Below, one piece after another: positions 5,224 through 29,400 of a stretch of DNA of 64,000 nucleotides (within the stretch, counting starts at the first letter, position 1; the number at the start of each line of letters is the position of its first letter). Under the pieces are notes generated by a model. That model saw only the letters and a program-made list of their open reading frames with translations. It ran no database searches and had not been told where the DNA came from. The translations under genes were made by a program, and so were the position numbers. The DNA is from a virus. The stretch covers positions 1 to 64,000 of IMG/VR virus record IMGVR_UViG_3300017598_001140. One strand, given 5' to 3'.

Positions 5224-5237
5224 AAGGAGGTGCGAAA

Positions 5238-7174: not shown

Positions 7175-8362
7175 ATGAAAATAAACAGGAAAGCATTACA
7201 GGCCGCTTTGGCTGAATTCTCAAAAATCGCGGACAAAAAACAACCGGACAAAATGTTCAGAAGTGTTCGCTTCAACTCGACAAAAAAGGGGACGTGTCAT
7301 TTGGCGGCGTGCTCTGAAAATGTTTTTGCGAAAAACGTTCTCAAGTGCTCGGAGGTTGGTGAGGACGAGAGGCCGGTTGAAGATGTGTGGTTTGATGTTT
7401 TGTTGCTGAAAGCTTTGGCGTCTGGGCGGTGTGAAAAAGATGAGTCGGTCGAAATTTATTCGGATGGGACTTTGGGCGCGGCCAAGGTTGTTTGTGATGG
7501 AATCGAAGCGAGTTTGAAAGTGGTTGATTCGTCGGAGTTTCTTTTTGATGCTCCAAGAGGCTGGCGCGAATTTATAGAGCTGGATGCAAAAGCTCTTTCC
7601 GGTGCGCTGGAGTATGTTTTGCCGGTTGTTGATTTTAAAGAAAAGCGAAAAAATATTGCTGGTGTTTTTTTTGATTCGGTTGAAAGCTCTGTTGTTGCTA
7701 CCGATGGGCATTCTTTGCACGTTGCAAAGTTTGAGTTTCGCGGAGACGAAGTTGAATCGTTTTCGGTCGTAAGCGGAGTCGAATCGGTTGCGAGGGTTTC
7801 GAAGAAAATTTCAAAAAATTCTGTCTGTAAATTTGCGCTTGCAAAGGGCGAGAATCCTGAGTGGGTTAATTTTCGTTTTGTCGATGTTGACGCGGTGAGT
7901 ATTTGGGAGGTTGCGGTTCGTACAAACGAAGAAGAGTATCCGCCCTATGAAGAGCTGGTTCCGAAAAAAAACCCTGTCATGTTTTTTGATTCGAGGGAAC
8001 TTGAAAAACGCTTAAAGCATATCGCCAAAATCAAGGCGGAAACAATTGACATTTTTATTGGTGAGAAAAGAGCTACGTTTCGAACTTTGTTTTCTGAAGT
8101 TGGCGATTTAGTTTTGGACGTTCCTTTTTCTTCAAGCGAGTGTGAAGAAGGCCAGGAATGTCGTTCGCAACTCGATCCGAAATTGCTTGAACTTTCTGTG
8201 GCGAATACAGGTGGCGAAGTAGATGTGTCTTTTTCGCTTAGCAGTGAAGATCCGAACGCTGCGCTTCGTGTCGACGTTGGCGAAAAATTTGTGGCCGTCG
8301 TTGCTCCTGTGAAGTACCTTGAGCTTGACGACGAAGACGACGAAGACGACGTAGAGGAGTAG
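7175..8362 (+). CDS. dnaN: DNA polymerase III beta (sliding clamp)-like protein
   Basis: About 390 aa; MKINRKALQAAL start, VVATDGHSL, YPPYEELVP, C-terminal AVVAPV; acidic tail. Confidence 0.75.
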   Translation: MKINRKALQAALAEFSKIADKKQPDKMFRSVRFNSTKKGTCHLAACSENVFAKNVLKCSEVGEDERPVEDVWFDVLLLKALASGRCEKDESVEIYSDGTLGAAKVVCDGIEASLKVVDSSEFLFDAPRGWREFIELDAKALSGALEYVLPVVDFKEKRKNIAGVFFDSVESSVVATDGHSLHVAKFEFRGDEVESFSVVSGVESVARVSKKISKNSVCKFALAKGENPEWVNFRFVDVDAVSIWEVAVRTNEEEYPPYEELVPKKNPVMFFDSRELEKRLKHIAKIKAETIDIFIGEKRATFRTLFSEVGDLVLDVPFSSSECEEGQECRSQLDPKLLELSVANTGGEVDVSFSLSSEDPNAALRVDVGEKFVAVVAPVKYLELDDEDDEDDVEE

Positions 8363-8414
8363 AACCCCGTTTTCGAAAAATTTTGTTTTGTAACTTTTTT
8401 GAATTAGAATCGTG

Positions 8415-8442
8415 TTCGTGATTTTTTTATTGGTGGTATAAT
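8415..8442 (+). promoter_or_regulatory. Extended -10 promoter
   Basis: TG-G-TATAAT at 8434-8442 in an AT-rich intergenic region. Confidence 0.6.
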
Positions 8443-8486
8443 GTAGGGGCGTTCGCAAATAAAGAAGCTGATTGGAAGTCGAATAA

Positions 8487-9158
8487 ATGAAATTAACAAA
8501 AGCGCAATTGAAGGAAGCTGCGGCGACTATTTACAACAAGTTGTCTGACGGTTTGACGGACAAAGAAGTCATTGAAGATATGGGGTTGGCTGTCGACGAA
8601 TACATGGTGTTGAAAGAGGCGATGTTAGACCAGAAAGCGGATGAGGTTAGGTCGCGCCCCCATGAGCATATTTATATCGAGTACATGATAGCGCAAACCG
8701 GAAACGTTCGTGACCTTACGGACATGATCGATTCGCTTCACAAAAAAAAGCAGTACTCTGCATTGGTTAGCGCAGTGCGAGCCCGGTCTGATATTTTGGA
8801 CAGATTGGTGGAGAAGGGCCAGGAGTTTGGTCTTATACACAAAACGCCTGAGAGGAAAGAGATAGTTGCAGGTGTAATGATTGCCGAGCTTTCAAATACA
8901 GAATTGAAAAAATTGATTCTTGGAGAGCTTGGAATGTTGAACGATTTGAGAAAGCAGTTTGGCGAGAAAAATTTTGCAGAGGTCAAAGAAGAAAACGACA
9001 TACATTACGGGAGGGCTTTGCCTCCGAAACCGGAGAGCGAAGAAGGTGCCAAAGTGCTTGGCAAAAACGAGGTGCCGAAACACAACAAAGCAAACGCAAG
9101 CAAAGTAAGAAAGGGGCGTCGTGTTCTAAGAAAACCGGCACCGATAAACGTGGAGTAA
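8487..9158 (+). CDS. Putative terminase small subunit
   Basis: N-terminal HTH-like segment, helical core, GLI..PERKEI, LSNTEL, basic tail; upstream of TerL. Confidence 0.45.
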   Translation: MKLTKAQLKEAAATIYNKLSDGLTDKEVIEDMGLAVDEYMVLKEAMLDQKADEVRSRPHEHIYIEYMIAQTGNVRDLTDMIDSLHKKKQYSALVSAVRARSDILDRLVEKGQEFGLIHKTPERKEIVAGVMIAELSNTELKKLILGELGMLNDLRKQFGEKNFAEVKEENDIHYGRALPPKPESEEGAKVLGKNEVPKHNKANASKVRKGRRVLRKPAPINVE

Positions 9159-9751
9159 TGAAAAAACCAAAAAAGTATTTTATTGTTTATTTAATCTGTT
9201 TGCCGAAAGACATTATCACTTGGTTGGCGGTTTTGTTTATTTGGATTTTCTGGGGGACCAAGCTGCATTGGCTGGATGGATTGTGGTGCGAATTAAAACC
9301 TCATTCTTGGCCAGCTAGAACGTGGTATCGGATCAAGGTTGGAGGCAAGCACATGAGGCGACCCGTCAGCGTCCAAGCGGAACGCGGCGAGTGGTTTACG
9401 TGGGGAGGTACAACGTTGGGCCACGGCGGTTTTTACGGGCCAGGCAGTTCCGGCGGCAAGGGTATCGATACAGAGATCGAGTTCCACGAACATGTGCATG
9501 TTGAACAGTTTGTGGCGGCGATGATAATGTCATTGGTTCAGGCGTTGATCTCGTTGTTGTTTGTCGGCTTGTCTGGCGATTGGACGACGGGCGTTCAATT
9601 GGCGCTTGTTCTTTGGGTCATTGGTGGTTTTCTTTTTGCGGCGGCTGGTTGGCTAACAGCTTGGCTGAGAGGCGAAGATCCGTACAGGGGAAGTTTTCAC
9701 GAAGAGGCGGCGTATTCTCTAACCAGAGAAGAAGTGGAGCGAAGAAGATGA
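9158..9751 (+). CDS. Membrane protein with HExxH zincin-like motif
   Basis: HEHVHVEQ...HEEAAY; about three hydrophobic segments. Confidence 0.6.
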   Translation: MKKPKKYFIVYLICLPKDIITWLAVLFIWIFWGTKLHWLDGLWCELKPHSWPARTWYRIKVGGKHMRRPVSVQAERGEWFTWGGTTLGHGGFYGPGSSGGKGIDTEIEFHEHVHVEQFVAAMIMSLVQALISLLFVGLSGDWTTGVQLALVLWVIGGFLFAAAGWLTAWLRGEDPYRGSFHEEAAYSLTREEVERRR

Positions 9752-10728
9752 AGCGTATAACTTTTAAAAAATTTGCAGGTGTTCGGAAAAGAGGAACCGT
9801 GGCGATAGAACCGCCGAAAACGCTATTGCATATTGACCGCGCAGTTTGGTTAACCTGCCTCGTGGAGAGCGGCGGAAAATTCGGGTGCGTGATCAATTTT
9901 GACGGAACCGGAATGACGGCAAGTATTGGACAGTCGATTGCTGTTTTTCCAAGGGCGCTTGGAGACGACACAAAGAAAAACGACCAAGGGCCACTGTGGA
10001 AGGTTTTGCACAGGATAAATTCTTTGCCCGGAGAGCTTGAAGCGATGGAAGAATTGAAAGAGGCTTTGCGAGGTGAAGGTTGGTTTGTTTCTAATGATGG
10101 AAAATGTCGTTACATAGAAACCGGGAAGCTGGTTTCTGGTCGAAAAATAAGAGAAGAATTTTCTGGAGATGTAAACGGTCTTATGCCAATCAAAGGACCG
10201 GGAAAGCGTAGAACGGAAACGTGGGTTAGATTGTTTCATAACCTTTTTGCGTGTCCATGTACTTTTGAGCTTCAACTTGCTTTAGAAAAAGAGCACTTTG
10301 TGAAACGTGCAACCAGAATAAAATTGCGATTTTGTAAAAACGAATTATTGCAAAAAGAGACAATGCAAAAAGCGATTTACGATCCGGTTCATATCAGCGC
10401 GATCACAGTTGATCAAATGGGTTTGGAAATGGATCTCGCAATGTCGATGTACTGGAGTCATTCTGTGAACGCACCGTCCTTTGCTTTGAAGAAATTTTGT
10501 AGGCAGGTTTTGGACAAACCGCAATACGGACGCTCAGAAACAACCAACGGCGAAGCGGCGTTGGCAAAGCACATAATCAAGAAGCTTGGCAACACAACTT
10601 TTGGCCGTTGGGATGATGACATAAAGCACGGGCGCTATCAGAGGACTAGGGCGCACGCGATGAAACTTTGGCCAAGAGAATTGTTTGTTGGTTCGAGCGC
10701 AATCATGCCGATTAATTTGATTGGATGA
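9748..10728 (+). CDS. Putative lysozyme-fold muralytic enzyme
   Basis: ATGA overlap at 9748; VESGGKFGCVINFDGTGMTASIGQ resembles the E..(D)...G..Q lysozyme motif. Confidence 0.4.
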   Translation: MKRITFKKFAGVRKRGTVAIEPPKTLLHIDRAVWLTCLVESGGKFGCVINFDGTGMTASIGQSIAVFPRALGDDTKKNDQGPLWKVLHRINSLPGELEAMEELKEALRGEGWFVSNDGKCRYIETGKLVSGRKIREEFSGDVNGLMPIKGPGKRRTETWVRLFHNLFACPCTFELQLALEKEHFVKRATRIKLRFCKNELLQKETMQKAIYDPVHISAITVDQMGLEMDLAMSMYWSHSVNAPSFALKKFCRQVLDKPQYGRSETTNGEAALAKHIIKKLGNTTFGRWDDDIKHGRYQRTRAHAMKLWPRELFVGSSAIMPINLIG

Positions 10729-11561
10729 AGGGCGTATCGAAAGAGAAACCGGTGAAGAAAAAAACGGTGAAAAGCAAGTTAAGAGAAAAGATGTCGGCTG
10801 GATGGATGACAGTGCCTTCTGGGGCTGAAATCGTGCCGCCAGATCATCCTATGTGTCGGTCAATTGTAGAGCTGATTGGTGACGATTTGCCGGTGGTCAA
10901 CGACGGAGCAATGGTTGGTCGTTTTGTTCGAGAGGAGCCAAAAACTTACAGGGTGGATCTTCGCGTGTCTGACAATGTTGTTTTTGATATAGAGAGGAAT
11001 GGTAGAGGTGCTGTCGAGCATTTTTTAAAAGAGGAAATGATTAAGCGTGGTTTTGATTTTTCTGCTGGCGCACGTTACCCGATACAAAGAGATAGGGACA
11101 TAACAACTGGAGAAACGATTTTCGTTCAGCAGATCACGGAAGAGCATTATGAAAAATTCGAGGCTGAAAGAGATCCGCCGCCATTGGCTCCGCCACCTGG
11201 ATGGGAACCAGGAGAAGACAGGGTTTTTCCAAAGAGTTTTTTTAACGGCGTTGAAGCGAATAAAGAAACCGGCAAAATAATGGGGGAAGAAGTCGTGAAG
11301 GCTTCGGAAAAATTCAGAGCTGACATAGAAAAAGATATGAGAGATGCGATTATGATCGGGGTCGAAGCTCTTTCGAAACATAGGCACCCGACTGCTAAAG
11401 GACCGGCGGCGCCACCGAACAAACCAGTGGAGCCGCCGGAGGGTCCAAAAAAAGTTTTCAAAAAACCGTCAGGTTTGAATTTAAAAGACGAGCCAGAGGG
11501 GCCAAGAAGTTTTGGCTCGCTTGAAGAGCTTCGGGATTGGTTGAGAGAAAAAAACCAGTAA
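10725..11561 (+). CDS. Hypothetical Pro-rich protein with C-terminal FGSLEELRDWL motif
   Basis: ATGA overlap; low-complexity linkers. Confidence 0.65.
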   Translation: MKGVSKEKPVKKKTVKSKLREKMSAGWMTVPSGAEIVPPDHPMCRSIVELIGDDLPVVNDGAMVGRFVREEPKTYRVDLRVSDNVVFDIERNGRGAVEHFLKEEMIKRGFDFSAGARYPIQRDRDITTGETIFVQQITEEHYEKFEAERDPPPLAPPPGWEPGEDRVFPKSFFNGVEANKETGKIMGEEVVKASEKFRADIEKDMRDAIMIGVEALSKHRHPTAKGPAAPPNKPVEPPEGPKKVFKKPSGLNLKDEPEGPRSFGSLEELRDWLREKNQ

Positions 11562-11611
11562 ATTAGGTCTGATAAATTTTCCAAAGTAAAATGCCCGAAA
11601 AGGAGGAACGT

Positions 11612-12331
11612 ATGGAAACGCTATTTCATCGTTTGTGTGCAAGTGTCGTTGTGTTGTTGCTCGTGACAACCGCGCCAAGTTTCGCGCAAACAAAAAGTGA
11701 TTTGAAAAACGAATTGGCTGCCGGGTTCGTGCGAGCGATTAAAGCAGAGTCGGTAACGTGGTACGAATGCGGTGAGAAAACTCCAAAAGAAAAATGGGAC
11801 CAAAGAGCTTTCGAGCTGGTTGAAGCGATATTGGATGCGCTTGCCGAGTTCGATGTGAAAATAAACCCGTGGGGCGTGCTTGGAACTGTGTTCAATGAGA
11901 GCCGTGGAAACCGCTGTGCAATCGGTCCTAATCCGCGCAAAGTTGCGCACGCACGAAACCTCGTGAATCGCAGTGATTGGCGTCTATGGACGGAACACGA
12001 CGTTTTAAAAGTAGTCAAGAGCCCCGATTGGAATGATAGGCCAGCAGACTTGGGTTTAGGTCAGGTTGTGTGGAGAAGATTTGCCAGGATAGAGGAAGAC
12101 GGAAAAGTCAGGATTCCAACGGTCGAAGAAATGTTGTCGTTGAAGGACGGTGCTCGCATTGTAGCTTACGCCATGAAACAGCGCATGAAGTATAAGCATA
12201 ATAGAAGGTGGCGGAATTTGCCGTGGTATTTTTGGCCGGGTGTGAAAGCGAATTTTTCTTACGGCAGAAAGGTCGCTTATACTGTGAAAAAAATGGGCGG
12301 GCCTTATAGGTCGCTACTTAGTTACAAGTAG
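11612..12331 (+). CDS. Signal-peptide-bearing lytic transglycosylase (SLT)-like protein
   Basis: AGGAGG SD; hydrophobic leader ending PSFA-Q; NESRGNRCAIG and DLGLGQV motifs. Confidence 0.6.
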   Translation: METLFHRLCASVVVLLLVTTAPSFAQTKSDLKNELAAGFVRAIKAESVTWYECGEKTPKEKWDQRAFELVEAILDALAEFDVKINPWGVLGTVFNESRGNRCAIGPNPRKVAHARNLVNRSDWRLWTEHDVLKVVKSPDWNDRPADLGLGQVVWRRFARIEEDGKVRIPTVEEMLSLKDGARIVAYAMKQRMKYKHNRRWRNLPWYFWPGVKANFSYGRKVAYTVKKMGGPYRSLLSYK

Positions 12332-13275: not shown

Positions 13276-14751
13276 ATGGGCAACAAGCCTGCTGTGGTTC
13301 CTATTCTTAAAAACGATTCCAAGAAGTTCAAGACGGCTGAACGTTCCGAGCTTGTAGGGTATTTAGATCACTACAAGGCGATGAACAACGAGTGGCTGCG
13401 TCGTCAGATATTGGTCAACAATAGAATTGATATTTTGGCTGTTTGTGTATTGGGCTACCACATGGAGCCAATGCATTCGCTGATGATGCGTTTTCAGTTT
13501 TTGCATCCGGACAGTTTGCAGCTTGCTTTTCGAGGCGCCGGTAAGTCGACGACGTGCACGATTGCAAAAGGTGTTCATTATCTCTTGAAAGATCCGAATT
13601 TTAGAATTTTGATTGCTTCTAAATCTATTGGAAACGCTCAAGGGTTTTTGAAAGAGATAAAAGGTCATTTCGAATCGAACGAAAAGTTGGCCGAAGTTTT
13701 TGGTTTGTATTACGACCCTAGAAAAGTAAACAAGTGGAACGACACAGAGATTGAAGTTTTGCCCAGAACGTCAAGAGCCAAAGAGGCTTCTGTGACTTGC
13801 GTTTCGGTTGAAGGAACGATTGTCAGCAAGCACTATGATGCGATAATTTCGGACGACCTTATCGACGAGGACAATTCCAGAACTCAGCACATGAGAGACA
13901 AGGTGCGGACGTGGTACTACCAGACGCTTGAACCGACATTGGAACCGCCAGACGATAAAGTCCCGCACAGAGGCGAACATCATAGGCTTGGAACTCGGTA
14001 TCATTACGCGGATTTGTACGGTCATTTGATCGAGAACGAAATGGCTGAGCATCACAATGTTATTCCGGCATTGAAAAGTGATCGGAGCCCTTGGCCCGAC
14101 AAGTATCCGCCGGAGTGGTTTGACGAAAAAAAGAAAAAGTCCGGAACGATAATTTTCAACGCTCAATACCAGTGCGACACAGAGGCAATGAAGGGCGAGA
14201 TTTTTCAGTACGATGATTGCCAGAAAATTAATTCGTCTGAGGTGCCAGATCAATTGAGGATTTTTATGGGTGTTGACTTGGCTATAAGTCAGGAGCAAAA
14301 AGCAGATCATTTTGCGATAGCAGTTATAGGAGTAGACACCAGCAAAAGGTATTACGTTCTTGATTGGTACGACGGACAGCTTAGGTTTGGCGACCAGACA
14401 AAAAAAATAGTTCAATTTTACAATAGGTGGGAGCCGATTCGTTGCTGCATAGAAACGAACGGCTATCAAAAGGCGCAGTACCAGAACTTGAAGGACGGCG
14501 ACAAAGATATTCGGCTCACTCCAAAGAACCAAGACAAAGACAAGATCGCGAGGGCTTGGAAGTTGTCTTCTATTTTTGAAGACAAACGCTTTTTTTTCAA
14601 GAAGATTGGTGGAGTTGAATTGGTTATTGAACAGCTTGTTCTTTTTCCTAGTTATCGTTACAAAGATTTTTTCGACGCTCTTGATCTTGCCGTTATGTCT
14701 AGCAGGTTGAGAAAGAGAAGAAGAAGGCGTAATGAGCCTGGGATAATATAA
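13276..14751 (+). CDS. terL: Terminase large subunit
   Basis: Walker A FRGAGKST, Walker B IISDD, GTRYH, FNAQYQ, nuclease GVDLA...D..DAL. Confidence 0.93.
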   Translation: MGNKPAVVPILKNDSKKFKTAERSELVGYLDHYKAMNNEWLRRQILVNNRIDILAVCVLGYHMEPMHSLMMRFQFLHPDSLQLAFRGAGKSTTCTIAKGVHYLLKDPNFRILIASKSIGNAQGFLKEIKGHFESNEKLAEVFGLYYDPRKVNKWNDTEIEVLPRTSRAKEASVTCVSVEGTIVSKHYDAIISDDLIDEDNSRTQHMRDKVRTWYYQTLEPTLEPPDDKVPHRGEHHRLGTRYHYADLYGHLIENEMAEHHNVIPALKSDRSPWPDKYPPEWFDEKKKKSGTIIFNAQYQCDTEAMKGEIFQYDDCQKINSSEVPDQLRIFMGVDLAISQEQKADHFAIAVIGVDTSKRYYVLDWYDGQLRFGDQTKKIVQFYNRWEPIRCCIETNGYQKAQYQNLKDGDKDIRLTPKNQDKDKIARAWKLSSIFEDKRFFFKKIGGVELVIEQLVLFPSYRYKDFFDALDLAVMSSRLRKRRRRRNEPGII

Positions 14752-14761: not shown

Positions 14762-16576
14762 ATGAACGAAATGACAAGAAGAGCGGTGGCCGTAGTGAAT
14801 ACCGGAGATAAAAAAACAGGCAGTGCGCTTCGAGAAATTCACGCAAAAATTATAGAAGTTAGTAAGCGCGCTGAAGACGTGCCAAGCGGCGAAGGAAAGT
14901 CGCACAGCTTGCCGGAAGATCCGTTCACAGAGTTAACAAAAAGCGGGATGGTTTTGCAGCCTCCGTTTGATCTGTTAACGCTGTCGATGCTTCCCGAAAA
15001 TAACACGGAAATGACGCAGTGTATCGATGCTATGGTGACGAACATCAGCGGCTTTGGTCACAGGTACGTTCCGAGGTTGAAAAAAGAAAGCATGGAGGGA
15101 TTGCAGGGGAGCATGAAGGCCAGTGTGAATTTGGAAAAAGTTAGGCTTGAAAATTTTTTCATGTATTGCACTCGCGAATCGTTCACGCGGTTTCGGTCAA
15201 AACAAGATCGAGATTTGGAAGCGACTGGAAACTGTTTTTTGGAGGTGGTGAGGGGTGCGAAGGGCAACATTCAAGGGTTTACTCACTTGCCAAGCTACCA
15301 AATGAGGCTCGCAAAAGTGGAAGACGAGCAGAATTATGTCGATAGGAAAATACTTGAGCTTCAAGAGGATTGGAGCATCGAGGTAAAGACGGTAAAAGAG
15401 TGGCGTAGATTTAGAAAATTTGTGCAGTCAAGAAGGTCAAGGGGTCGCGCTGTCGAGTCTGTGACGGGCAGCGAAAAAGTTCGGTGGTTCAAGCAGTTTG
15501 GTGATCCGAAAAATTACCGCAACGACACAGGGGAAGAGGCGGAGGAAGGTACGCCGGTCGACAAGCTTGCCAACGAAGTGATTCATAGGCGGATTTATTC
15601 TGGCCGTTCACCGTATGGCTTACCGCGTTACATTGGAAATTTGCTTTCGATTTTTGGTGATAGGGCGGCGGAAGAAATTAATTTCATAACTTTTAAAAAC
15701 AACAATATTCCTTCAATGGTGATAACCGTCAGCAACGGGCAATTGACCGATCCGACCATCGACCGCATAAAGGAGTTTGTAGAATCTCAAATTCAGGGCT
15801 CTGATAACTACAGCAAATTTTTGATATTGGAAGCCGAGGGAGTTGAAGAGGGCGAAGACGGTTCGCAAGTGAAAGTTGAAGTGAAGCCATTGGTGTCGGA
15901 GCAGCACAAAGACGCATTGTTTCAACAGTACTCAAAAAACAATCAGGACAAGATACGGCGCCTGTGGAGGTTGCCGCCGATTTTCGTGGGTCGTTCAGAC
16001 GACTATACCAGGGCTACAGCGGAGAGCAGTAGGCGATTGGCGGACGAGCAAATTTTTTCTCCTGAAAGAGATGAGTTTGACGCATTGATGAACAGGGTAA
16101 TTTTTCCGGAGATGGGAATTCTTTACCACAAGTTCAAGTCGAATAGCCCTAACACAACAGACAACACGCAATTGGTGAAAATTTTGGCGAGCGCTGAGAA
16201 GACAGGCGGCATGAACCCGAAGATTGGCCGCATGATTTTGGAAGATGTCTTGAACGCCGAGTTACCGGGGTTTCCGGATGATTTCGATCCGGATGTACCG
16301 TTCAGTTTGACGATGGCCGAAGCTGTGAAAAACGAGGCAGACCCAACGGAGCCGGGGCAACAGGTCACGGCATTGAAAAATTTTGGCACTGCGTTTGGTA
16401 TTGGAGAGGACGAAGAGGAATTAGTTGAAGCGGAGTGCACGGAGTGCGGCAACGAGGAGTTTGTTTTGAAGTCGGACAGCACTGGAGATCCTGTTGTCGA
16501 CCATTTGGTTGCATTGAAAAAGAACGTTGAAAAAAAGTGGAGAACGGCCGTGCTTGAGAACAGCGAAGAAGACTAA
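14762..16576 (+). CDS. Portal protein (PBSX XkdE-like)
   Basis: After TerL; DLEATGNCFLEVVR, NEVIH, YGLPRY, RLPPIFVG. Confidence 0.9.
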   Translation: MNEMTRRAVAVVNTGDKKTGSALREIHAKIIEVSKRAEDVPSGEGKSHSLPEDPFTELTKSGMVLQPPFDLLTLSMLPENNTEMTQCIDAMVTNISGFGHRYVPRLKKESMEGLQGSMKASVNLEKVRLENFFMYCTRESFTRFRSKQDRDLEATGNCFLEVVRGAKGNIQGFTHLPSYQMRLAKVEDEQNYVDRKILELQEDWSIEVKTVKEWRRFRKFVQSRRSRGRAVESVTGSEKVRWFKQFGDPKNYRNDTGEEAEEGTPVDKLANEVIHRRIYSGRSPYGLPRYIGNLLSIFGDRAAEEINFITFKNNNIPSMVITVSNGQLTDPTIDRIKEFVESQIQGSDNYSKFLILEAEGVEEGEDGSQVKVEVKPLVSEQHKDALFQQYSKNNQDKIRRLWRLPPIFVGRSDDYTRATAESSRRLADEQIFSPERDEFDALMNRVIFPEMGILYHKFKSNSPNTTDNTQLVKILASAEKTGGMNPKIGRMILEDVLNAELPGFPDDFDPDVPFSLTMAEAVKNEADPTEPGQQVTALKNFGTAFGIGEDEEELVEAECTECGNEEFVLKSDSTGDPVVDHLVALKKNVEKKWRTAVLENSEED

Positions 16577-16578
16577 AA

Positions 16579-18663
16579 ATGTGCTTAGACACCATTCATC
16601 TTGGCAGGGTCGCGGCTGACGCTCTATTGGCCAAGGCTCTAATGATTTCCGAAGTCGCCCAGATGTCTCGCGCCGAAGTTCGCATGCGAGAGTTTTTGAT
16701 TGGCTCTTGGAACAAGCGAAAAGCCAAGGCCGAAAAACGCGCTGTTGAATTGGCGGAGAAGCTAAAAAGTCCAAGCGAAATAACAAAAGAGATCGATAAA
16801 ATAATGGAGGGGTGGGCTGGCGAAGCTTCAGTGGTGGTTGAAGACGAGATGGATTTGATTTTTCGTCTTGGATTGAACATTGGTTACAAAAAAGCAACGC
16901 GGCAAACGAAAGCTGATTTGAATTATGTTTTGCCGAAAACAAACGACGTTGATGTGGAGAAAGCGGGTAAGAAAAAAGTTGCTGAGATTTTACCAAGCTT
17001 CACAATCGCGGACGAAAGAGCTATTGATGCTCTAAAAAAACACCAAGTGTTTTGGATTGGTGAGCATTACAAAAAAAACGTTTCAAAAACAATAGGGAAA
17101 AGAGTCAAGCAAACGATGCTCGAAGCTGGCGAGAGTCCGCTTAAAGCCGGAAAGCTTATGCGCGTGAAGGTTAGAGATGCGCTTACTCACGTAAAGGTTC
17201 CCGGCGGTTTTAATGGAACTAATTTGCAATATTTTGAAGGCGTGAGCGCGAACGCTGCGACAGTTGCAAGGGTCAACGGCCAGTTGAGATCCTTTGCTTC
17301 TATTGGAATTAGAAGCTATAGGATTTCTGCCGTTAATGACAGGAGAACTTGTGACCGCTGTTCGCATATGGACGGGAAGGTTTTTCAAACGTCGCAAGGG
17401 CTTTCGCAAATGAGTTCTGTATTGGATGCGAAAACGCCAAACGCGGTGAAAGCCGCGCATCCGTGGCCCAACTCTAAAGAGCTGAAAGCTATCTCCTCAA
17501 AGGCCGGGCCGCAATCAGGTAAAGCAGGCGTTGCAGATGCAAAGGCGTTGTCGTCTGCCGGATTGGCCATGCCGCCGTATCATTTTAAGTGTCGGTGCAC
17601 TGTCGATATATCGGACGATATTAGGTCGTACGATCAGCTTTTGCCGATGTCGGTTCCTGCGCCTAAGAAACCTCCGTCAGCGGCGTTCAAACCGAAGCCG
17701 AAACCGAAGCCGAAAAAGAAGCCATTGGTGCCAGAAAAAATAAGTGCTTCGGAGCTTGCAAAAGAGAAGCAGAGAATCAGCGATTTAGAAAGCGCGAAGT
17801 ATGTTGAAAGCCATGCTTTGGGCGTGGGAGTGAATGACGCTCACCTTGTGACTTTTAAAGCAAAAACAGGAGAAGAAATAAAAGGCATTTACAAGTCGGC
17901 TGCTTCTGAATACGAAAATATCAGGCCCGGATTGAAAACGGGTACTTATTACAAGCGCGAGGTGGCTTTGTACGAATTGGATAAAGCGCTAGGAGGAGCG
18001 AAGGTTGTTCCGCCAACGGTCGTTCGAGATATAAAAAAATTAGGAGGGAAAGGCAGTCTTCAATTTTTTGAAAAAGATGCCAAAATGATAGACCATTTTG
18101 GAGAAGATGACGTGGCTGCTTTTCTTAAAGCGAAAGGCGCAGCAGATCCGACTTTGAGAAAAACTTTTTTGCTCGATATTATCAGTGGCAATGACGACAG
18201 GCATAGCCAGAACATAATGTTTAAAATGATAAAGGGCGGTAAAGGAACAAAGCGGATTGGAAAAGCGGTTGCGATTGATAATGGTTTGACGTTTCCGAGA
18301 GGTCATCCGATTCGCTTTATGTTTCCGGGCGATGTGTATGTTTCGACCGGAGATTACACAACTAAATTATTGGCATTGGATAAAATCAGCCACGCACAAG
18401 TGAAGAAATTGGACTTGAAAAAAGTGGCTGCGATGCTGAAGAAAAACGGGGTTGAACGTCATCCGATTAAGCAAGCTCTTGTACGCATAAGGGCTTTGCA
18501 AAAAGATCCAAAAGCAATCGCCAATATAAAAACGCAATACCACTTAGAACCCGATCAAAAAGTGGAGATGTTTTTTGAAAAGAGTGTCGATACTCCGTAC
18601 CGGCTTGTTGGGAATAAAGACCATGATAAAATTTTGAAAATTGTAGCGGAAATTTTTGATTAA
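16579..18663 (+). CDS. MuF/SPP1 gp7-like head morphogenesis protein fused to a PI3/PI4-kinase-like domain
   Basis: MuF: DRRTCDRC..MDGK, PPYHFKCRCT; Pro/Lys linker; kinase: GIYK, REVALYELD, VPPTVVR, GSLQ, NDDRHSQN, IDNGLTF. Confidence 0.85.
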   Translation: MCLDTIHLGRVAADALLAKALMISEVAQMSRAEVRMREFLIGSWNKRKAKAEKRAVELAEKLKSPSEITKEIDKIMEGWAGEASVVVEDEMDLIFRLGLNIGYKKATRQTKADLNYVLPKTNDVDVEKAGKKKVAEILPSFTIADERAIDALKKHQVFWIGEHYKKNVSKTIGKRVKQTMLEAGESPLKAGKLMRVKVRDALTHVKVPGGFNGTNLQYFEGVSANAATVARVNGQLRSFASIGIRSYRISAVNDRRTCDRCSHMDGKVFQTSQGLSQMSSVLDAKTPNAVKAAHPWPNSKELKAISSKAGPQSGKAGVADAKALSSAGLAMPPYHFKCRCTVDISDDIRSYDQLLPMSVPAPKKPPSAAFKPKPKPKPKKKPLVPEKISASELAKEKQRISDLESAKYVESHALGVGVNDAHLVTFKAKTGEEIKGIYKSAASEYENIRPGLKTGTYYKREVALYELDKALGGAKVVPPTVVRDIKKLGGKGSLQFFEKDAKMIDHFGEDDVAAFLKAKGAADPTLRKTFLLDIISGNDDRHSQNIMFKMIKGGKGTKRIGKAVAIDNGLTFPRGHPIRFMFPGDVYVSTGDYTTKLLALDKISHAQVKKLDLKKVAAMLKKNGVERHPIKQALVRIRALQKDPKAIANIKTQYHLEPDQKVEMFFEKSVDTPYRLVGNKDHDKILKIVAEIFD

Positions 18664-18701
18664 AAATCACCACGTCGGCTGCAAATCTAGTCAGGTTTAA
18701 T
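18661..18701 (+). promoter_or_regulatory. Bipartite promoter-like motif, copy 4 (apparently leaderless transcript)
   Basis: TAAAAATCACC-N12-AATCTAGTCAG; ATG 41 nt from motif start, no clear SD. Confidence 0.6.
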
Positions 18702-18998
18702 ATGGACATAAAAATAGTAAAATACGATTCGGAAACCGAAGAGCTAAAATTGCTGGCGGTATTTCGTTTGCGGAAGAAAAAAGTCAAAGCAGAATGGTAC
18801 GGGAAAAGCGATTCCCTGAAGCACAACATAGAGAGGAACGGGGTGGCGACAGGCAACGGTCTTTTCTTCATGAAAGACGGAAAAGATTTCATGGACAATT
18901 TGCTTTTTGCGTACGCGCAAAGCAGTTTTGTATCTGCTGTTGAAATAAAAAAAGACCACAAGCCGAAATTGAAAACCAAATCCAAAAAAGACGATTGA
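18702..18998 (+). CDS. Small protein, candidate immunity partner of the MuF kinase
   Basis: 98 aa directly after MuF-effector; own promoter-like motif; function inferred only. Confidence 0.5.
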   Translation: MDIKIVKYDSETEELKLLAVFRLRKKKVKAEWYGKSDSLKHNIERNGVATGNGLFFMKDGKDFMDNLLFAYAQSSFVSAVEIKKDHKPKLKTKSKKDD

Positions 18999-19148
18999 CG
19001 AGGCTCGGCGCTCGTATGTGGCTTTCATTGGTTGCTATTTTCATAGCTTCTGAATTATCCTAGTATAAAAAAAATCCAGTATAACTTACGTTTTATTTTG
19101 CTTTTTTCACGTTTCGCGTTAGGCTTGCGTTGATACGGCATTGGAAGC

Positions 19149-19583
19149 GTGGAGATTATTTTGGAAACAGAAATTTGTGGGCAAAAAGAAGAATTCAGTA
19201 TCTTTGTTCCCATAGCAAAAGCAAACAAAGAAGAGCACACCGTGACAGGCGTTGTGCTTCAACCAGAAGTAACAGACGCTCAGGGCGATATTATGTCGGC
19301 CAATGTCATCAAACAGGCCGCGCACGATTTTCTCTCAAAGTACAATAAAAAAACAGAGCTTGGCTTCATGCACAAAAGTTTTAAGCGGCGTTTCGAGCTG
19401 CTTGAATCTTACGTTGCGCCAATGGATTTTGTTTTGAAAAGTGCTGTCATAAAAGCGGGTTCATGGATTGTGACCGTCAGGGTAAAAGAGACGAAAGTTT
19501 GGAAGATGATCAAGGACGGAAACATAACGGGGTTTTCGATTGGTGGGAAAGCAAAAGTTGTCATGGTGGAAGCTAATGACTAA
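19149..19583 (+). CDS. XkdF-like prohead serine protease
   Basis: GVVLQPE..DAQGD, AAHDF, GFMH, ESYVAP, GSW, ITGFSIGG. Confidence 0.88.
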   Translation: MEIILETEICGQKEEFSIFVPIAKANKEEHTVTGVVLQPEVTDAQGDIMSANVIKQAAHDFLSKYNKKTELGFMHKSFKRRFELLESYVAPMDFVLKSAVIKAGSWIVTVRVKETKVWKMIKDGNITGFSIGGKAKVVMVEAND

Positions 19584-20496
19584 TAAAACTAAAAGGCGTT
19601 TTGTGGCGCTTGCAGTCGACGAACTTTCGCTGGTGGATACGCCAGCTAACGAAAAAGAATTTGCCGTTGTCAAGCGGCTACAAACGGAGGAAGAAATGGC
19701 AATCGAAAAAGATACCAAAGTAGAGAAAGGCTCTGCCGAGGAAACCGACGAAAAAAGCATTGAGAAAAAAGCCGTTGGCGACGGTGTTGAGAAGGTAGAA
19801 ACAGAGGTTCCGGATACCAACGACGAAGCTGTCGAAAAAGCGATGGGGAAAGTCGTCGAAATGGTTGAAGGGATTGTCAAAAAATCCGAGAAAAAGAAGG
19901 AAGAAAAAGCCGAGGACGAGGACGAAGCCGAAGCCGAAGAAGAAGGCGGCGGAAAGAAGAAAGCGAAAGCGGAAAAGAAAGCGACTCCGCGAGAAGTTTT
20001 TGAAGAGCAGATGAAGAAAAACGGCGTGAAAGATGACGCGCTGAAAACTGCGCTTGAAGCCTTCGACGATTCGGCTGGCGTGGAGAAATCCGAAAAGCCC
20101 GAAGAAGAGGTTGAAAAGAGGAAGGACGACGAGGTTCTTGAGGCGCTTGAAGCTTCCATTGGAAAAGCCAAGAGATTCACGCCCGGCCGCATGGACACTT
20201 TGAAAAACGCCATTGGAACTTTGCAAAAACTTCTCGGCGAATTGACGCCTGCGGAAAAAGCAGTGGAAGAGGCCACAGAGGGAGCGCTTGAAGGCGGTTT
20301 AGGCTCGGCGGTTGCGAAGGCTCTCAAAGAATTCAACGTCAAACTCGACGGCGTGGTAGAGACTCAGAAAAATGTCGGCGAGAGAGTCAAGGAAATAGAA
20401 GAGGCGAGGAATCCGTCAGCGTCATTGGAAGAGGATGGCGAAACAGATACGGACGTGGTTGAAACAGAAAAAAGTCTTTGGAAGGGTGTTATCTAA
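19576..20496 (+). CDS. Capsid scaffold protein (long form; in-frame internal start at 19696)
   Basis: N-terminal ELSLVDTPAN, Glu/Lys-rich with repeated VEK[AS], C-terminal KSLWKGVI; position before MCP. Confidence 0.8.
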   Translation: MTNKTKRRFVALAVDELSLVDTPANEKEFAVVKRLQTEEEMAIEKDTKVEKGSAEETDEKSIEKKAVGDGVEKVETEVPDTNDEAVEKAMGKVVEMVEGIVKKSEKKKEEKAEDEDEAEAEEEGGGKKKAKAEKKATPREVFEEQMKKNGVKDDALKTALEAFDDSAGVEKSEKPEEEVEKRKDDEVLEALEASIGKAKRFTPGRMDTLKNAIGTLQKLLGELTPAEKAVEEATEGALEGGLGSAVAKALKEFNVKLDGVVETQKNVGERVKEIEEARNPSASLEEDGETDTDVVETEKSLWKGVI

Positions 20497-23092: not shown

Positions 23093-23440
23093 ATGGCGCG
23101 GAGTCTTCAAAAATTAAAGCAGATTGATACGCCGTTAGGGTACGACGATCAGAGGACCGGAGCCGAAGTTTCAAACACAGAAACAACGGCCGACGATTTG
23201 GAAAAAGTTTTCCACGGCATGCTGAGCCAGTTGAAGCGAATTATTCACGGTGAAGACGCCGGGAATTGGTTCGATAATATCAACTCTGTTTTTGGTGAAG
23301 ACGTTTCTTTAAAAGCTCTGTTGGCAAAGATTGGAACCGGCGGTGGTGGTGGTATTGATGAAGATAAAATCTTGGTAGAGCGAACAACAGGATTGGTTAT
23401 GATTCTCCGCGCTACCGGAAATGTATTGGTGAGAAGATGA
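23093..23440 (+). CDS. Hypothetical structural protein
   Basis: Translationally coupled to the giant fibre gene. Confidence 0.6.
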   Translation: MARSLQKLKQIDTPLGYDDQRTGAEVSNTETTADDLEKVFHGMLSQLKRIIHGEDAGNWFDNINSVFGEDVSLKALLAKIGTGGGGGIDEDKILVERTTGLVMILRATGNVLVRR

Positions 23441-26400
23441 GCTATCATGATGAGGTGCCTTTAGGGTCTGTTCATCAGCCGTGCAATTGGGAATACGCAG
23501 ACGCGGCCGCAAGAACCGGCGCGAGCGGCTTTGTGTCTGGCGACATTGGAAAGTTCGCCCGGCAATTGGATGACAATTCTGTTTGGATGCTAACTGCTGT
23601 TACTCCTACTTGGGGACAAATAAACGCCGATAATGCGCCACACGCAAGCGACCACGAAAATGGCGGTGCAGATGAAATAAATGTAGCGGGTTTAAGCGGA
23701 GTCTTGGCGGACGATCAAAATCCTGCGGCTCATGCATCGGATCACGAAAACGGAGGTGGCGACGAAGTGAGCGTGGCCGGGCTTTCAGGATTGCTTGCAG
23801 ACGACCAAAATCCAACAAGCCACGGAGCTGCGGCGCATAGCGGAAGCATTGGTTCTCATTCGCAAATAACATCGGTGGGTGAAGATGATCACCACGCTAA
23901 AACCCACGCCACGACTCACGAAAATGGCGGAGCGGACGAAATAAGCGTAGCAGGTTTAAGTGGACTTTTAGCAGACGATCAAAATCCAGCAAGCCACGCA
24001 AGCGAACACGAAAACGGCGGAGTCGATGAGATAAGTGTGGCAGGTTTAAGCGGAGAGCTTGCGGACGACCAACCACCGAAAGATCATGGCGCTGCGGAGC
24101 ATAGTGGGAGCATTGGAACGCACTCTCAAATAACATCGGTGGGTGAAGACGATCACCACGCTAAAACACACGCCACCACTCACCAAAACGGTGGTGCTGA
24201 TGAAATTAATGTGGCTGGTTTAAGCGGTGAATTAGCAGACGATCAAAATCCTGTGGCTCATGCATCGGAGCACGAGGACGGCGGCGCGGATGAAGTCAAC
24301 GTGGCAGGTTTAAGTGGAGAACTTGCGGACGATCAGCCACCAAAAGACCACGGCGCAGCCGCGCACAGCGGAAGCATAGGGACACATTCTCAGATAACAT
24401 CGGTCGGAGAAGACGATCACCATGCTAAAACCCACGCCACGACTCACCAAAATGGCGGAGCAGATGAGATAAGCGTAGCAGGTTTAAGCGGAGAACTTGC
24501 GGACGACCAACCGCCAAAAAATCACGCATCGGATCACTCTGACGGCGGCGGCGATGAAATCACAGTCGAAGATTTAGCCACCAGTGGAGGCTCAGGAACT
24601 GTCCCGATTTCGCAAGGGGATGGAAGCCTTGCGATGGGAGCGCCGACGCCTACAAGCCACGCTACGACCCACCAAAACGGTGGAGCTGACGAAATAAGTG
24701 TAGCTGGATTGAGCGGAGTTTTAGCAGACGATCAAAATCCAACAGCGCACGCATCGGAACACGAAAACGGTGGTGTTGATGAGATGAGCGTGGCCGGTTT
24801 AAGTGGAGAATTGGCAGACGATCAACCGCCGAAAAGCCACGGAGCTGCGGAGCATAGCGGAAGCATTGGAACGCACTCTCAAATAACATCGGTGGGAGCG
24901 GACGACCACCACAACCAATCGCATGGAGCAAGCGATCACAGTGGCGACATTGGTGCGGCGTCTCAAGTGACAAATGATTCGAGCGTTTCTGGCGCGAAAG
25001 TAAAAGAAGCACTTGAAACATTGGAGACGACAATCACGGCATTGGAAAACGGAAGGATACACCGCGACCCAGTTATCAATATAGTGGATTGCACGCAAGC
25101 GCCGCCGTCAGAAGTTTCTGGCGATAGGTTTATCATAGACAACACCATTGGAACGGTCCATGCGGATTACGACGGTGCCAGCAAAAATGACATAGTAGAC
25201 TTCAACGGCTCCACATGGGATGCATTTAGCCCGGTAGAAGGCTGGCTTGCTTATGTAGATTCGCAAAATCAAGATGCGTTGTTTATCGATGATGGAACAC
25301 CGCAATGGCAATTGAGGCCGGTTGCGGTTACTGACCACGCCGATTTGTCTAACGTAACGTCAGACCAGCACCACGCTAAAGACCACGCCGCCACTCACCA
25401 AAACGGCGGAGCAGATGAAATAAGTGTGGCTGGTTTAAGCGGACTTTTAGCAGACGATCAAAATCCGGTTTCCCATGCGAGTGAGCACGAAAACGGAGGC
25501 GGAGACGAGATCAGTGTGGCGGGGTTGAACGGGCTATTGGCGGACGACCAGAACCCAACAAGCCACGGCGCTGCCGCCCATAGTGGTTCTATTGGAACGC
25601 ACTCTCAAATAACAAGCGTCGGTGAAGATGACCATCACGCTAAAACCCACGCTACCACTCACCAAAACGGTGGAGCAGACGAAATTAGTGTAGCCGGATT
25701 GAGCGGAGAATTGGCGGATGATCAACCGCCGAAAAACCACGCGGCGGATCATTCCGATGGCGGTGGCGATGAAGTAACGGTCGAAGATTTAGCCACTAGC
25801 GGAGGGTCTGGAACCGTCCCGGTTTCACAAGGAGACGGAAGCTTGTCGATGGGAGCGCCTGCGCCTGCAACCCACGCCACGACTCACGAAAACGGTGGAG
25901 CGGATGAAGTTAGTGTAGCTGGATTGAGCGGACTTTTAGCAGACGATCAAAATCCAACGGCTCATGCGAGCGAACACGAAAACGGCGGAGTCGATGAGGT
26001 TAGCGTGGCTGGCCTAAGCGGAGAATTGGCGGACGATCAACCGCCTAAAGCACATGGTGCCGCCGCTCACAGTGGGAGTATTGGAACCCACTCTCAAATA
26101 ACATCGGTTGGTGAAGACGATCACCACGCTAAAACCCACGCTACCACTCATGAAAACGGTGGCGGCGACGAAATAAGTGTAGCAGGTTTAAGCGGCTTGT
26201 TGGCGGACGATCAAAACCCAACAGCTCACGCATCGGATCACCAAAGCGGCGGCGGTGATTCAATTAAATTGGATGACCTCGCAACACCGGACGACAATAC
26301 TGATTTGGACGCTACCACTGGGTTACATGGATTGCTTCCGAAACTCGGCGGAGGTACAACAAATTTTTTGAGAGCGGACGGAACGTGGTCGGCTCCGGGC

Positions 26401-29400
26401 GGTGCTCCTAGCGCGCACGCTTCAAGCCACGAGAACGGCGGCGGCGATGAGATAAGTGTAGCTGGTTTAAGTGGGGAATTGGCGGACGACCAGCCGCCGA
26501 AAAGTCACGGAGCTGCTGCGCACAGTGGGAGCATTGGAACGCACTCTCAAATAACATCGGTTGGAGAAGACGATCACCACGCTAAAACCCACGCCACCAC
26601 TCACCAAAACGGTGGTGCTGACGAAATAAGTGTGGCTGGTTTAAGCGGACTTTTAGCAGACGATCAAAATCCGACAAGTCACGCCTCGGAGCACGAAAAC
26701 ACAGGCGGTGACGAAATAAGTGTGGCCGGTTTAAGCGGACTTTTAGCAGACGATCAAAATCCGGTTTCTCATGCATCGGATCACCAAAGCGGCGGTGGTG
26801 ATTCAATCAAATTAGACGACCTCGCAACTCCAGACGACAACACCGATCTCGACGCTACCACTGGGTTACACGGTTTGCTGCCGAAGCTCGGCGGAGGTAC
26901 AACAAATTTTTTGAGAGCGGACGGAACGTGGAGCGCGCCGCCTACTCTTGGAGGTCACGCATCGGATCACGAAAACGGTGGAGCTGACGAAATAAGTGTG
27001 GCTGGTTTAAGCGGATTATTAGCAGACGATCAGAACCCGACAGCGCACGCATCGGAGCACGAAAACGCTGGAGTTGATGAGATAAGTGTAGCTGGTTTAA
27101 GTGGGGAATTGGCAGACGATCAACCGCCGAAATCACATGGAGCAGCAGCGCACAGCGGGAGCATTGGAACGCACTCTCAAATAACAAGTGTCGGCGAAGA
27201 TGATCACCACGCTAAAACCCACGCCACGACTCACCAAAACGGTGGAGCGGATGAGATAAGTGTAGCAGGTTTAAGCGGACTATTGGCGGACGATCAAAAT
27301 CCAGCAAGCCATGCATCGGATCACGAGAACGGCGGCGGAGACGAAATAAGCGTGGCTGGTTTAAGCGGAGAGCTGGCAGACGACCAGCCACCAAAGGCGC
27401 ATGCGTCGGCTCACTCTGACGGCGGTGGTGACGAAATCACGGTCGAAAATTTAGCCACCAGTGGAGGGTCTGGAACCGTCCCGGTTTCGCAAGGCGACGG
27501 AAGTTTGGCAATGGGAGCACCAGCGCCAGCGACACACGCCACAGCTCACGAAAACGGCGGTGGTGACGAAATAAGTGTAGCAGGTTTAAGTGGATTGTTA
27601 GCAGACGATCAAAATCCAACGGCTCATGCATCGGAGCACGAAAACGGTGGAGCCGACGAGATAAGTGTAGCGGGATTGAGTGGAGAATTGGCGGACGACC
27701 AGCCGCCGAAATCGCATGGGGCGGCGGCACATAGCGGGAGCATTGGAACGCACTCTCAAATAACATCTCTCGGAGTCGACGACCACCACGCGCAATTGCA
27801 CGCCGCTGCGCATCAAAACGGCGGCGGAGACGAAATAAGCGTGGCTGGTTTAAGCGGATTATTGGCGGACGATCAAAATCCAACAAGTCACGCATCGGAT
27901 CACCAAAGCGGTGGTGGCGATTCAATTAAATTGGACGACCTCGCAACACCAGACGACAACACGGATCTCGACGCTACCACTGGGTTACACGGTTTGCTTC
28001 CGAAGCTTGGTGGAGGCACGACAAATTTTTTAAGAGCAGACGGAACGTGGGCCGCGCCGGGTGGCGGAGGTTCTCATGCTTCAACCCACGAGAACGGCGG
28101 CGGAGACGAAATAAGTGTGGCTGGTTTAAGTGGTTTGCTTGCTGACGATCAAAATCCTACCGCCCATTCGAGCGACCATGAAGACGGTGGGGCTGACGAA
28201 ATTAATGTGGCAGGTTTAAGCGGAGAGCTTGCGGACGATCAGCCCCCTAAAGACCATGCAGCAAACCATACGGATGGAACGGACGATGTTCAAGACGGCA
28301 CAAATTCGCAAAAGGGTTTGGTAACTGCCGCTCAAATAACTTTGTTGGAAAGGTTGGAAACGTATCAAGCCGACGTGAACAAAACGGGGTTTTTAAATTA
28401 TACAGATTCCGTGCGCAGTTTTGTGAATGGAAGCATGACTTTTTCAATTCAACCGGCGGTGACTAGTTACGAATATTATATTGATGGGGTTAAGTACACA
28501 AAGACCGGAACGGATAATGTTGTCATTGATGACACTGAAGGATTGCATTACATTTATTTTGATGGGGCCACGTTAAAAAAGACAACAACTTTTAGCGTTG
28601 ATTTAGTCAAGATTTACGCCTTTGTTGCGGTCATTTATTGGGACGCAACAAATAACGTACAAATTTATTTTGGTGACGAACGCCATACTCCAATCATGGA
28701 TTGGAAAACGCATATGCGTTTGCACTTTGTTGTTGGTGGTTCAATTTCTGAAGGTGGTGGGTTGGGTGGTATTTTAGCCAACGACAGTGGGGGCGATGAT
28801 GAAGACGCAGAATTTTCGATTGAAGCTACAGAATTTTGGGATGAAGATATAAATATTTCCCACGGTGCAAAAAGTTCAACGGCGAATATTGGAGTGTATT
28901 CCAGAAGTGGCGTTGATGCATCGAAAATATGGCGTGTGGATGAAACGGCCAGCTTTGGCGTTATCACTACCGGGACAGGCCGCGCTGCTTGGAATGAATT
29001 AACTGGTGGAAGTTGGCAACAAACAGAAGTTTCTAATAATGATTTTGTTTTAGCACATGTTTTTACCTATAACGACCCGGACAGAAAGTTTGGAGTTTTT
29101 CAAGGTCAAAACACATATCCAACGGCTAGCCAAGCACGCGCGGCGGCTGAAGATTTAACAGAAATCAATGCGCTTATCACAGAGGGGTTGCCATTACCTG
29201 AATGGAAGTTTTTAGGGACGTTAATTTATCAGACTTCCAATGGTTATGGTAATGCCGTTAAATCAAGGATTCGCTCAACGTCCGATGGCGGTGATTATGT
29301 TGATTTGAGAGGCGCTTTGATTTCAAGAACCGGCACAGGCGTTGCCGGGACATTGGACATCGTAAATCTAACCACGTCAGAACTGGGAACGGCTTATTGG

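Follow-up and report, generated by a model that had tools for sequence, protein, structure and literature searches.

A type II phosphatidylinositol 4-kinase-like domain on a phage MuF head protein and its genetically coupled small partner

In this study, we analysed a window of 64,000 nucleotides of viral DNA, comprising positions 1 to 64,000 of the IMG/VR record IMGVR_UViG_3300017598_001140 (linear, 79.5 kb, 77% complete by CheckV), with a focus on two neighbouring genes of its head module. The open reading frame (ORF) at 16579-18663 on the plus strand encodes a protein of 694 amino acids (aa), which combines a MuF minor head protein, a Pro/Lys linker and a 304-aa kinase domain. After 38 nt it is followed on the same strand by an ORF for a 98-aa protein (18702..18998), and both ORFs are present as described in the initial annotation. 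Judged from sequence and model, the C-terminal domain of the larger protein is a homologue of the type II phosphatidylinositol 4-kinases (PI4KII) and apparently catalytically active, and the 98-aa protein, as delineated by a family hidden Markov model (HMM) and an AlphaFold2 (AF2) model, is its strictly coupled genetic partner. The evidence supports a kinase cargo with a dedicated partner and suggests an as yet unstudied enzyme cargo which phages carry into their hosts.

A kinase domain at the end of a MuF head protein

The carrier part of the fusion protein (aa 1-354, 16579..17640, plus strand) is a MuF/SPP1 gp7-like minor head protein module, which was recognised by Pfam (PF04233, Phage_Mu_F, 32.8 bits at a curated cut-off of 29.6, aa 240-342), by TIGR01641 (43.1 bits, curated cut-off 39.65) and by several PHROG families of minor head proteins. 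As the initial annotation had read it, this part ends at PPYHFKCRCT and is followed in the translation by KPKPKPKPKKKP. The latter belongs to a Pro/Lys-rich linker (aa 355-390, 17641..17748, plus strand), which also appears as low-complexity repeat D12 and is variable and unalignable among homologues.

The remaining part of the protein (aa 391-694 plus the stop codon, 17749..18663, plus strand) was assigned to the type II PI4K-like kinases by an AF2 model and by structure and profile searches. The model was built from an alignment of 45 sequences and reached a predicted local distance difference test score (pLDDT) of 94.5 and a predicted template modelling score of 0.93. In a VIA-align comparison with 48,161 representative PDB chains, which was carried out for the partner model as well, the best match was human PI4KIIalpha with Z 20.5 (254 aligned, root-mean-square deviation 4.1) and Z 19.8, followed by Fam20 (Z 14.4), CtkA (12.9), HipT (12.3 and 10.5), actin-fragmin kinase (11.7), CotH (11.3) and, at about 10.5, HipA, Vps34 and PI4KIIIbeta. 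In agreement with PI4KIIalpha, Foldseek returned 4hnd_B (E 4.7e-8), and the kinase family profile retrieved PI4KIIalpha from the PDB sequences with E 5.4e-18. The structure prediction, which had been proposed as a check, thus places a fold of the PI3/PI4-kinase superfamily on a MuF carrier.

The domain had been described beforehand as a PI4K/HipA-like kinase. On the level of Pfam, PI3_PI4_kinase (PF00454) scores 26.5 bits with the protein of the window, just below the gathering score of 27.1, and matches 52 of 58 relatives at E <= 0.001 (best E 1.9e-24). HipA_C, in contrast, does not match the protein of the window and was found in only one of the 58 relatives (E 8e-5), so that the domain is not a member of the HipA family in the Pfam sense, and the Hip kinases are likewise not its closest structural neighbours.

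The full set of kinase motifs named in the initial annotation is present, and in sets of 16 to 150 homologues each of them shows no or almost no variation. The glycine-rich loop GVGVN (aa 415-419, 17821..17835, plus strand, as for all motifs) contains G417, which is invariant in the 16 fusion homologues. The ATP-binding lysine K439 (17893..17895) is invariant in our alignments A1, A3 and A4 and aligns with the FKPK lysine of PI4KIIalpha. Moreover, R460/E461 and the hinge GSLQ (aa 492-495) precede the catalytic loop NDDRHSQN (aa 538-545, 18190..18213; DDRHSQN at 539-545), in which N538, D540, R541, H542 and N545 are invariant among the 16 homologues, and the metal-binding or activation segment IDNGLTF (aa 566-572, 18274..18294; IDNG at 566-569), which is invariant among them as well and aligns with AIDNGLAFP of PI4KIIalpha. 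K439, D540, R541, H542, N545 and D567 are all invariant in the alignment of 16 fusion sequences; in the other alignments this holds for K439, D540, R541 and D567, with H542 and N545 being invariant or at least 90% conserved. Taking the sets of 16, 45, 58 and 150 homologues together, K439, R460, E461, S493, Q495, D533, D540, R541, H542, N545, D567 and G569 are invariant or at least 90% conserved.

Motif for motif, the alignment with PI4KIIalpha pairs the hinge GSxQxFV, NDDRHxxN with NTDRGNDN, and AIDNGL(T/A)FP. Human PI4KIIalpha and PI4KIIbeta (PDB 4pla, 4hnd, 4wtv) are the best structural and profile match of the phage domain, and GSxQxFV, N(D/T)DR..N and AIDNGL.FP are common to both. The two sides differ in that identity amounts to about 20% and that the phage catalytic loop carries a histidine (DRH), as in PI3K and HipA. 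The next-best structural relatives, i.e., Fam20C, CtkA, actin-fragmin kinase, CotH and HipA, are protein kinases. Since a lipid kinase is closest among the solved structures, protein kinases come next and no host is inferred, the substrate class is not to be read from these comparisons.

The kinase is widespread: an exhaustive search of 1.84 billion representatives yielded 743 clusters at E <= 1e-3 and 178 at E <= 1e-10, counted at 50% identity. The domain ends at most 80 aa from the C-terminus in 128 of 158 homologues, and at least 62 of these 158 carry MuF (44 recognised by the family HMM, 18 more by Pfam); portal, VG15, PT-HINT pretoxin, ADP-ribosyltransferase and glutamine deamidase domains occur on homologues as well. 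Given this C-terminal placement on varied carriers, the kinase behaves as a cargo or toxin domain. A tblastn search with the kinase domain in 50,697 GenBank phage records found no match, nor did a scan of IMG/VR with the pattern of the single protein, whereas alignment-based scans gave matches. Among 185,579 species genomes, we found no close prophage copy of the kinase and only distant chromosomal SCO1664-like kinases (in metagenome-assembled genomes of Actinomycetota, Chloroflexota and similar), and the genome scan points to no host.

Coupling of kinase and partner, and the motif in their spacer

In BLAST searches, the 98-aa protein retrieves its closest relatives only. Nearly all kinase loci have an ORF of about 80 aa directly past the kinase stop, often with a 4-nt overlap, and an HMM built on close members and iterated over the kinase loci unites these ORFs as one family with the pattern V.TF.L..D.V ... 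G..L.P.DG..(F/Y).(D/E)AL...(F/Y)..S(S/T), in which G60 is invariant. A match to this family touches the kinase gene in 23 of 28 assessable IMG/VR viral loci, be it on the same strand, inverted or fused; the locus L006, whose contig ends 48 nt past the kinase stop, is outside this count, and L022 and L023 have weak matches in addition. The partner gene lies on the opposite strand and converges with the kinase gene in L013 and L025, and the kinase protein itself continues into a partner domain at its C-terminus in L026 as well as in four representatives at 50% identity (P0050, P0074, P0115, P0139). A reciprocal scan starting from the small protein alone recovered the kinase directly upstream in 10 of 10 loci, including the new contig L175.

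The initial annotation had tied the small ORF to the kinase and named as one counter-case a small ORF kept by relatives whose MuF lacks the kinase. Such relatives turned out to lack the small ORF as well: the partner family was found in 0 of 17 portal-relatives with a kinase-less MuF, and likewise in 0 of 80 cellular loci of SCO1664-like kinases. On the portal tree (a quick IQ-TREE reconstruction with SH-aLRT support), well-supported branches force at least three gains or losses of the pair, and both members always change together. Within a 98%-supported clade of 11 rows including the window, the pair is present in seven rows; MuF stands alone in L117 and bears another C-terminus in L112. Because of this joint presence and absence on the tree and in the controls, kinase and partner are a two-gene cassette, which enters and leaves the 3' end of muF as one piece, and their genetic coupling is strict.

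The comparison of related phages, which had been suggested for swapped MuF C-termini, indeed revealed such swaps: the position of the kinase is taken by nothing, by the kinase, by an ADP-ribosyltransferase or by unmatched domains. MuF-only relatives stop shortly past PPYHF(K/R)CRC (L117, 365 aa; L133, 381 aa; L115, 370 aa). A more distant portal-relative (L123:8478-9896) features an ADP-ribosyltransferase (ADPrib_exo_Tox, E 7e-15) behind MuF in place of the kinase, and in the close portal-relatives L113:2679-4766 (696 aa) and L112:2817-4352 (512 aa) MuF has C-terminal extensions without a Pfam family, which are, as read from their sequences, further cargo domains without family match. Within the block, kinase and partner diverge fastest (31-44% identity), compared to MuF (41-53%) and portal and major capsid protein (MCP; 57-70%).

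Further arrangements of the kinase were encountered during this survey. The protein P0154 (2,892 aa) contains the kinase domain three to four times in tandem, L016:938-3352 has an AAA_18-like N-terminus ahead of MuF and kinase, and in L027:7791-9443 the order is reversed, with the kinase N-terminal and a MuF-like part C-terminal. At L175:1836-6272, a 718-aa protein has the kinase at its end; next come the small partner gene and, behind it, a MuF-like ORF of its own (4455-6272). Within the head module, the kinase thus also occurs unfused to MuF. Versions without MuF were found at L025:7878-9525 (convergent partner gene) and L026:7566-9350 (fused partner domain). These lie on contigs of 230 kb and 618 kb with cellular-looking neighbours, e.g., a class A penicillin-binding protein-like transglycosylase, and may represent stand-alone chromosomal modules.

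The 38-nt spacer between the two genes of the window holds a copy of a bipartite motif (AAATCACC-N15-CTAGTCA, 18664..18694, plus strand). It contains TCACCACGTCGGCTGCAAATCTAGTCAG, which is identical in 24 of 28 positions to 7129-7156 upstream of ORF 7175, exactly as had been reported before. The consensus of this 28-nt pair has matches without mismatch at those two genome sites only, at 0 expected. The initial annotation had called ORF 7175 a clamp gene; the motif copy is in place there, but the label is tentative, with no Pfam match of the ORF. It had moreover placed the same motif ahead of a radical SAM gene and other genes. What these have in common is a looser bipartite consensus, AAATCAMC-N15-CYRRWMW, and not the 28-nt similarity. 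This consensus occurs at five sites on the plus strand and at none on the minus strand of the 79.5-kb genome, with 0.01 expected in shuffled sequences. The still looser TCAMC form has seven plus-strand sites (0.33 expected in shuffles), of which six lie just upstream of gene starts, and its matches include 70540 and 77685, neither of which was used to define the pattern. The recurrent element is thus real, and it is a candidate for a phage-specific promoter class.

Its sites are 2639, 5186, 7129, 18664 and 59301 in the window and, beyond it, 70540 and 77685 of the genome. In the form AAATCAMC-N15-CYAGTCA it is confined to the coding strand, at a distance of 10-85 nt from the gene starts downstream, and the genes behind it are the radical SAM gene, ORF 5238, ORF 7175, the kinase partner, ORF 59339 and ORF 77740. 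A scan of 16000-19700 for sigma-70 promoters and terminators returned hits at chance level only. The idea that the 28-nt motif forms an RNA hairpin was rejected by inspection, as the four differences between the copies keep no pairing.

In the window, the partner may be transcribed from this upstream motif, and may be made early. Relatives differ in this respect: L002 to L005 have a conserved spacer of their own, and in many others the small gene adjoins the kinase stop codon or overlaps it. Early synthesis of the partner from a separate promoter is therefore not a family trait, and it may be a refinement of this phage and not of the system.

Known systems, delivery of the kinase and the role of its partner

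The locus shares an N-terminal MuF, a linker, a variable C-terminal enzyme and a small ORF (<150 aa) directly downstream with the MuF polymorphic toxins and MuF effectors (PMC3482391; PMC5576092; PMC5512222). It differs from them in its cargo, as a type II PI4K-like kinase is absent from those papers, and in its partner, which forms a defined conserved family and also occurs fused to the kinase. In fact, the word "kinase" has 0 occurrences in Jamet et al. (2017; PMC5576092), and the kinases described by Iyer et al. (2017; PMC5512222) are a zeta-toxin-like one fused to MuF as well as truncated Ser/Thr kinases within polyvalent proteins. Whereas the definition of MuF polymorphic toxins was based on temperate phages (PMC5576092), the phage studied here is large (about 103 kb) and marine. 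According to the initial annotation, such a kinase is not known as a characterised MuF effector, and we too found no published description of a PI4K-type MuF cargo and none of the partner. To our knowledge, only few MuF cargos have been studied, e.g., nucleases, ADP-ribosyltransferases and (p)ppApp synthetases.

In the literature, the closest case is the HipA-family kinase of the "Gratiaviridae" (Benler et al., 2021; PMC8008677), which is an atypical kinase encoded between the portal and MCP genes of uncultivated phages as well. A further point of likeness is the AAA-like N-terminal part of our relative L016. That paper names neither a MuF fusion nor a partner gene, and the search of the GenBank phages returned no match to the present kinase. 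A further parallel is T7 Gp0.7, a phage kinase which modifies host proteins at the start of infection (as cited in PMC5512222 and PMC8008677). T7 Gp0.7 is early-expressed, belongs to another kinase family and is not known to have a virion-borne fusion or a dedicated partner.

Beside the observed domain architecture, fold, intact active site, kinase-partner coupling and cassette-like gain and loss, the explanation that we consider on balance probable is that of an active kinase which is carried by MuF, ejected and silenced by a dedicated partner in the cell that makes it. The MuF minor head protein would serve as the carrier of an enzymatically competent kinase of the type II PI4K branch. A few copies would enter the procapsid and exit the capsid together with the DNA, in analogy to SPP1 gp7 and to MuF-fused effectors, from which we infer packaging and ejection. 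In the newly infected cell, the kinase would act on a host protein or lipid. The partner, which probably controls the kinase, would bind and silence it in the producing cell, either like HipS, which plugs the Gly-loop pocket of HipT, or like the immunity protein of a polymorphic toxin, and would be left behind when the kinase is packaged. By these analogies, and in view of the faster divergence of kinase and partner than of the head proteins, we lean towards an inhibitory partner, be it an inhibitor or an immunity-like plug, and the "immunity" role that had been proposed for it is plausible.

MuF-borne effectors give phages one of their few ways to bring finished enzymes into a cell along with the DNA. 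With a kinase as cargo, protein or lipid phosphorylation would join the tools for takeover or anti-defence in the first minute. The kinase and its partner would form a tractable two-gene module, and their clear kinship makes the phage kinases relevant to the question of where the eukaryotic type II PI 4-kinases have their roots among prokaryotes and viruses. A broader version of the explanation would extend it to all 743 clusters of kinases homologous to the eukaryotic type II enzymes on MuF, portal, VG15 and pretoxin carriers, as a large class of virion cargo injected to rewire the host at entry, each kinase being checked by a HipS-like plug left in the producer, so that the logic of toxin-antitoxin systems would be re-used for timed enzyme delivery; this generalisation we put forward tentatively, as falling somewhat short of probable.

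The comparison with HipS derives from the AF2 model of the partner (pLDDT 83.5), a small beta-beta-beta-alpha-beta-beta-alpha-beta domain which weakly resembles the HipS fold. HipS is the antitoxin of the HipT kinase and occupies the pocket of its Gly-rich loop (PMC10627512; PMC9325769). The top structural ranks were 7vkb_B (102 aa, Legionella HipT-HipS complex) and 7ab3_B (100 aa, E. coli HipBST), both with a Z of 4.6 that lies under the level the aligner itself takes as meaningful; chain B was taken as HipS in both entries because of its size and because chain C of 7ab3 matches the kinase model. N-subdomain 1 of HipA reached Z 4.4 (Shewanella) and 3.8 (E. coli, rank 5), with entries of HipS or HipA thus occupying ranks 1, 2, 3 and 5. 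In known Hip families, a HipS-like protein is either encoded downstream of the kinase (hipJS, hipIN) or forms a domain behind the kinase core of the same chain (HipL) (PMC8262856), and both arrangements recur here. Our locus shares with HipBST, hipJS, hipIN and hipL the broad kinase superfamily and a partner of about 80-100 aa, which is separate (downstream in hipJS and hipIN) or fused after the core (HipL). It differs from them in that its kinase resembles PI4KII (Z 20.5) far more than HipT or HipA (Z 10.5-12.3), in that a HipB-like repressor is missing and in its location on a phage head protein instead of a chromosomal toxin-antitoxin operon.

Several points weigh against a silencing, HipS-like partner of an ejected kinase. 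Apart from the low Z, the partner is without sequence or profile similarity to Couple_hipA: this Pfam family had no match at E <= 10 in 19 partner members, and hhalign of the partner alignment (A5) with 25 genuine Couple_hipA sequences gave a probability of 0.14%. Foldseek of the partner model likewise found no match in the PDB at E <= 0.001. The protein belongs to no family in Pfam, NCBIfam, PHROG or PADLOC and matches no PDB sequence. The ESM Atlas returned no usable match by features; its own model of the partner was poor (pLDDT 0.52), and its top structural row was a 219-aa HIRAN-domain protein, which may be HipN-shaped. Given the low Z and the lack of sequence or profile similarity, we did not assign the partner to the HipS family; as an unannotated family, it would be a new kinase regulator. 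Furthermore, where kinase and partner are naturally fused, a regulatory subdomain that the kinase requires explains the arrangement no worse than an inhibitor does, and the homologous subdomain of HipA belongs to the active toxin. The logic of interbacterial competition may not apply either, since no integrase or resolvase was found in the 79.5-kb record, i.e., in 77% of the genome, and Benler et al. assigned a late role in the producing cell to a comparable kinase of the head module (PMC8008677).

Some of these points lead directly to other explanations. The small protein could be an obligatory structural or activating subunit of the kinase, like a split-off N-subdomain 1 of HipA, which is co-packaged or acts jointly with the kinase instead of inhibiting it. 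In favour of such a subunit, the small domain is found fused behind the kinase in no fewer than five independent natural cases (L026, P0050, P0074, P0115, P0139), and many relatives have a 4-nt gene overlap, which implies stoichiometric co-translation; moreover, N-subdomain 1 of HipA, the fold weakly resembled here, sits in an active kinase (PMC10627512), and HipL has the same order of core and HipS-like domain (PMC8262856). A gene that is inverted relative to the kinase, as in L013 and L025, is however less expected of an obligatory subunit, the only solved split forms of the fold, namely HipS, are antitoxins, and the partner of this phage has its own upstream motif. Altogether, we regard the subunit as rather unlikely, at perhaps half the weight or less that we give to a silencing partner.

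It is more doubtful still that the kinase is not ejected and acts late in the producing cell, on the head, the scaffold or the host envelope or against superinfection, with the small protein as its substrate or timer. The gene lies within the late head operon, between portal and protease, and a late, superinfection-related role was proposed for the HipA-family kinase between portal and MCP of five "Gratiaviridae" phages (PMC8008677). The fusion to MuF via a flexible linker is, on the other hand, an architecture of virion cargo (PMC3482391; PMC5512222; PMC5576092), the same kinase also sits on portal, VG15 and PT-HINT carriers, and close relatives build their heads without it, so that the kinase is no morphogenetic necessity. 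Finally, the domain could be a passenger that has decayed or lacks catalysis, such as a pseudokinase or a binding module, with the small ORF being an unrelated ORF of the head operon, conserved by chance. Apart from the PI3_PI4_kinase score of the window protein just under the threshold (26.5 vs. 27.1), little speaks for this very improbable case, which is already contradicted by conservation and co-occurrence: the catalytic residues are kept (invariant or at least 90%) over hundreds of divergent clusters, the kinase model is of high confidence, and the small ORF follows the kinase and not the head module.

Genomic surroundings of the locus

The head module is encoded entirely on the plus strand in the order terminase (13276-14751), portal, MuF-kinase ORF, 98-aa ORF, protease, scaffold-like protein and MCP. 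The portal gene (14762..16576, Phage_portal, E 8.5e-18), directly upstream of the MuF-kinase ORF, encodes a protein 57-65% identical to the portals of related IMG/VR phages, and the next head gene behind the partner is an XkdF-type prohead protease (19149..19583, Peptidase_S78_2, E 2.1e-31). The studied stretch is also present in seawater and marine-sediment metagenomes of a single study, with no RNA data set listed for it, and the window contains no tRNA genes.

Upstream of the terminase, six ORFs in a row (7175-12331, 197-395 aa) have no Pfam match at E <= 0.001. Past the capsid genes, a very long gene (23437-30744 of the window) is built of many diverged direct repeats (families D1-D5, 60-100% identical) with spacings in multiples of about 264 nt, and probably encodes a repetitive fibre or decoration protein.

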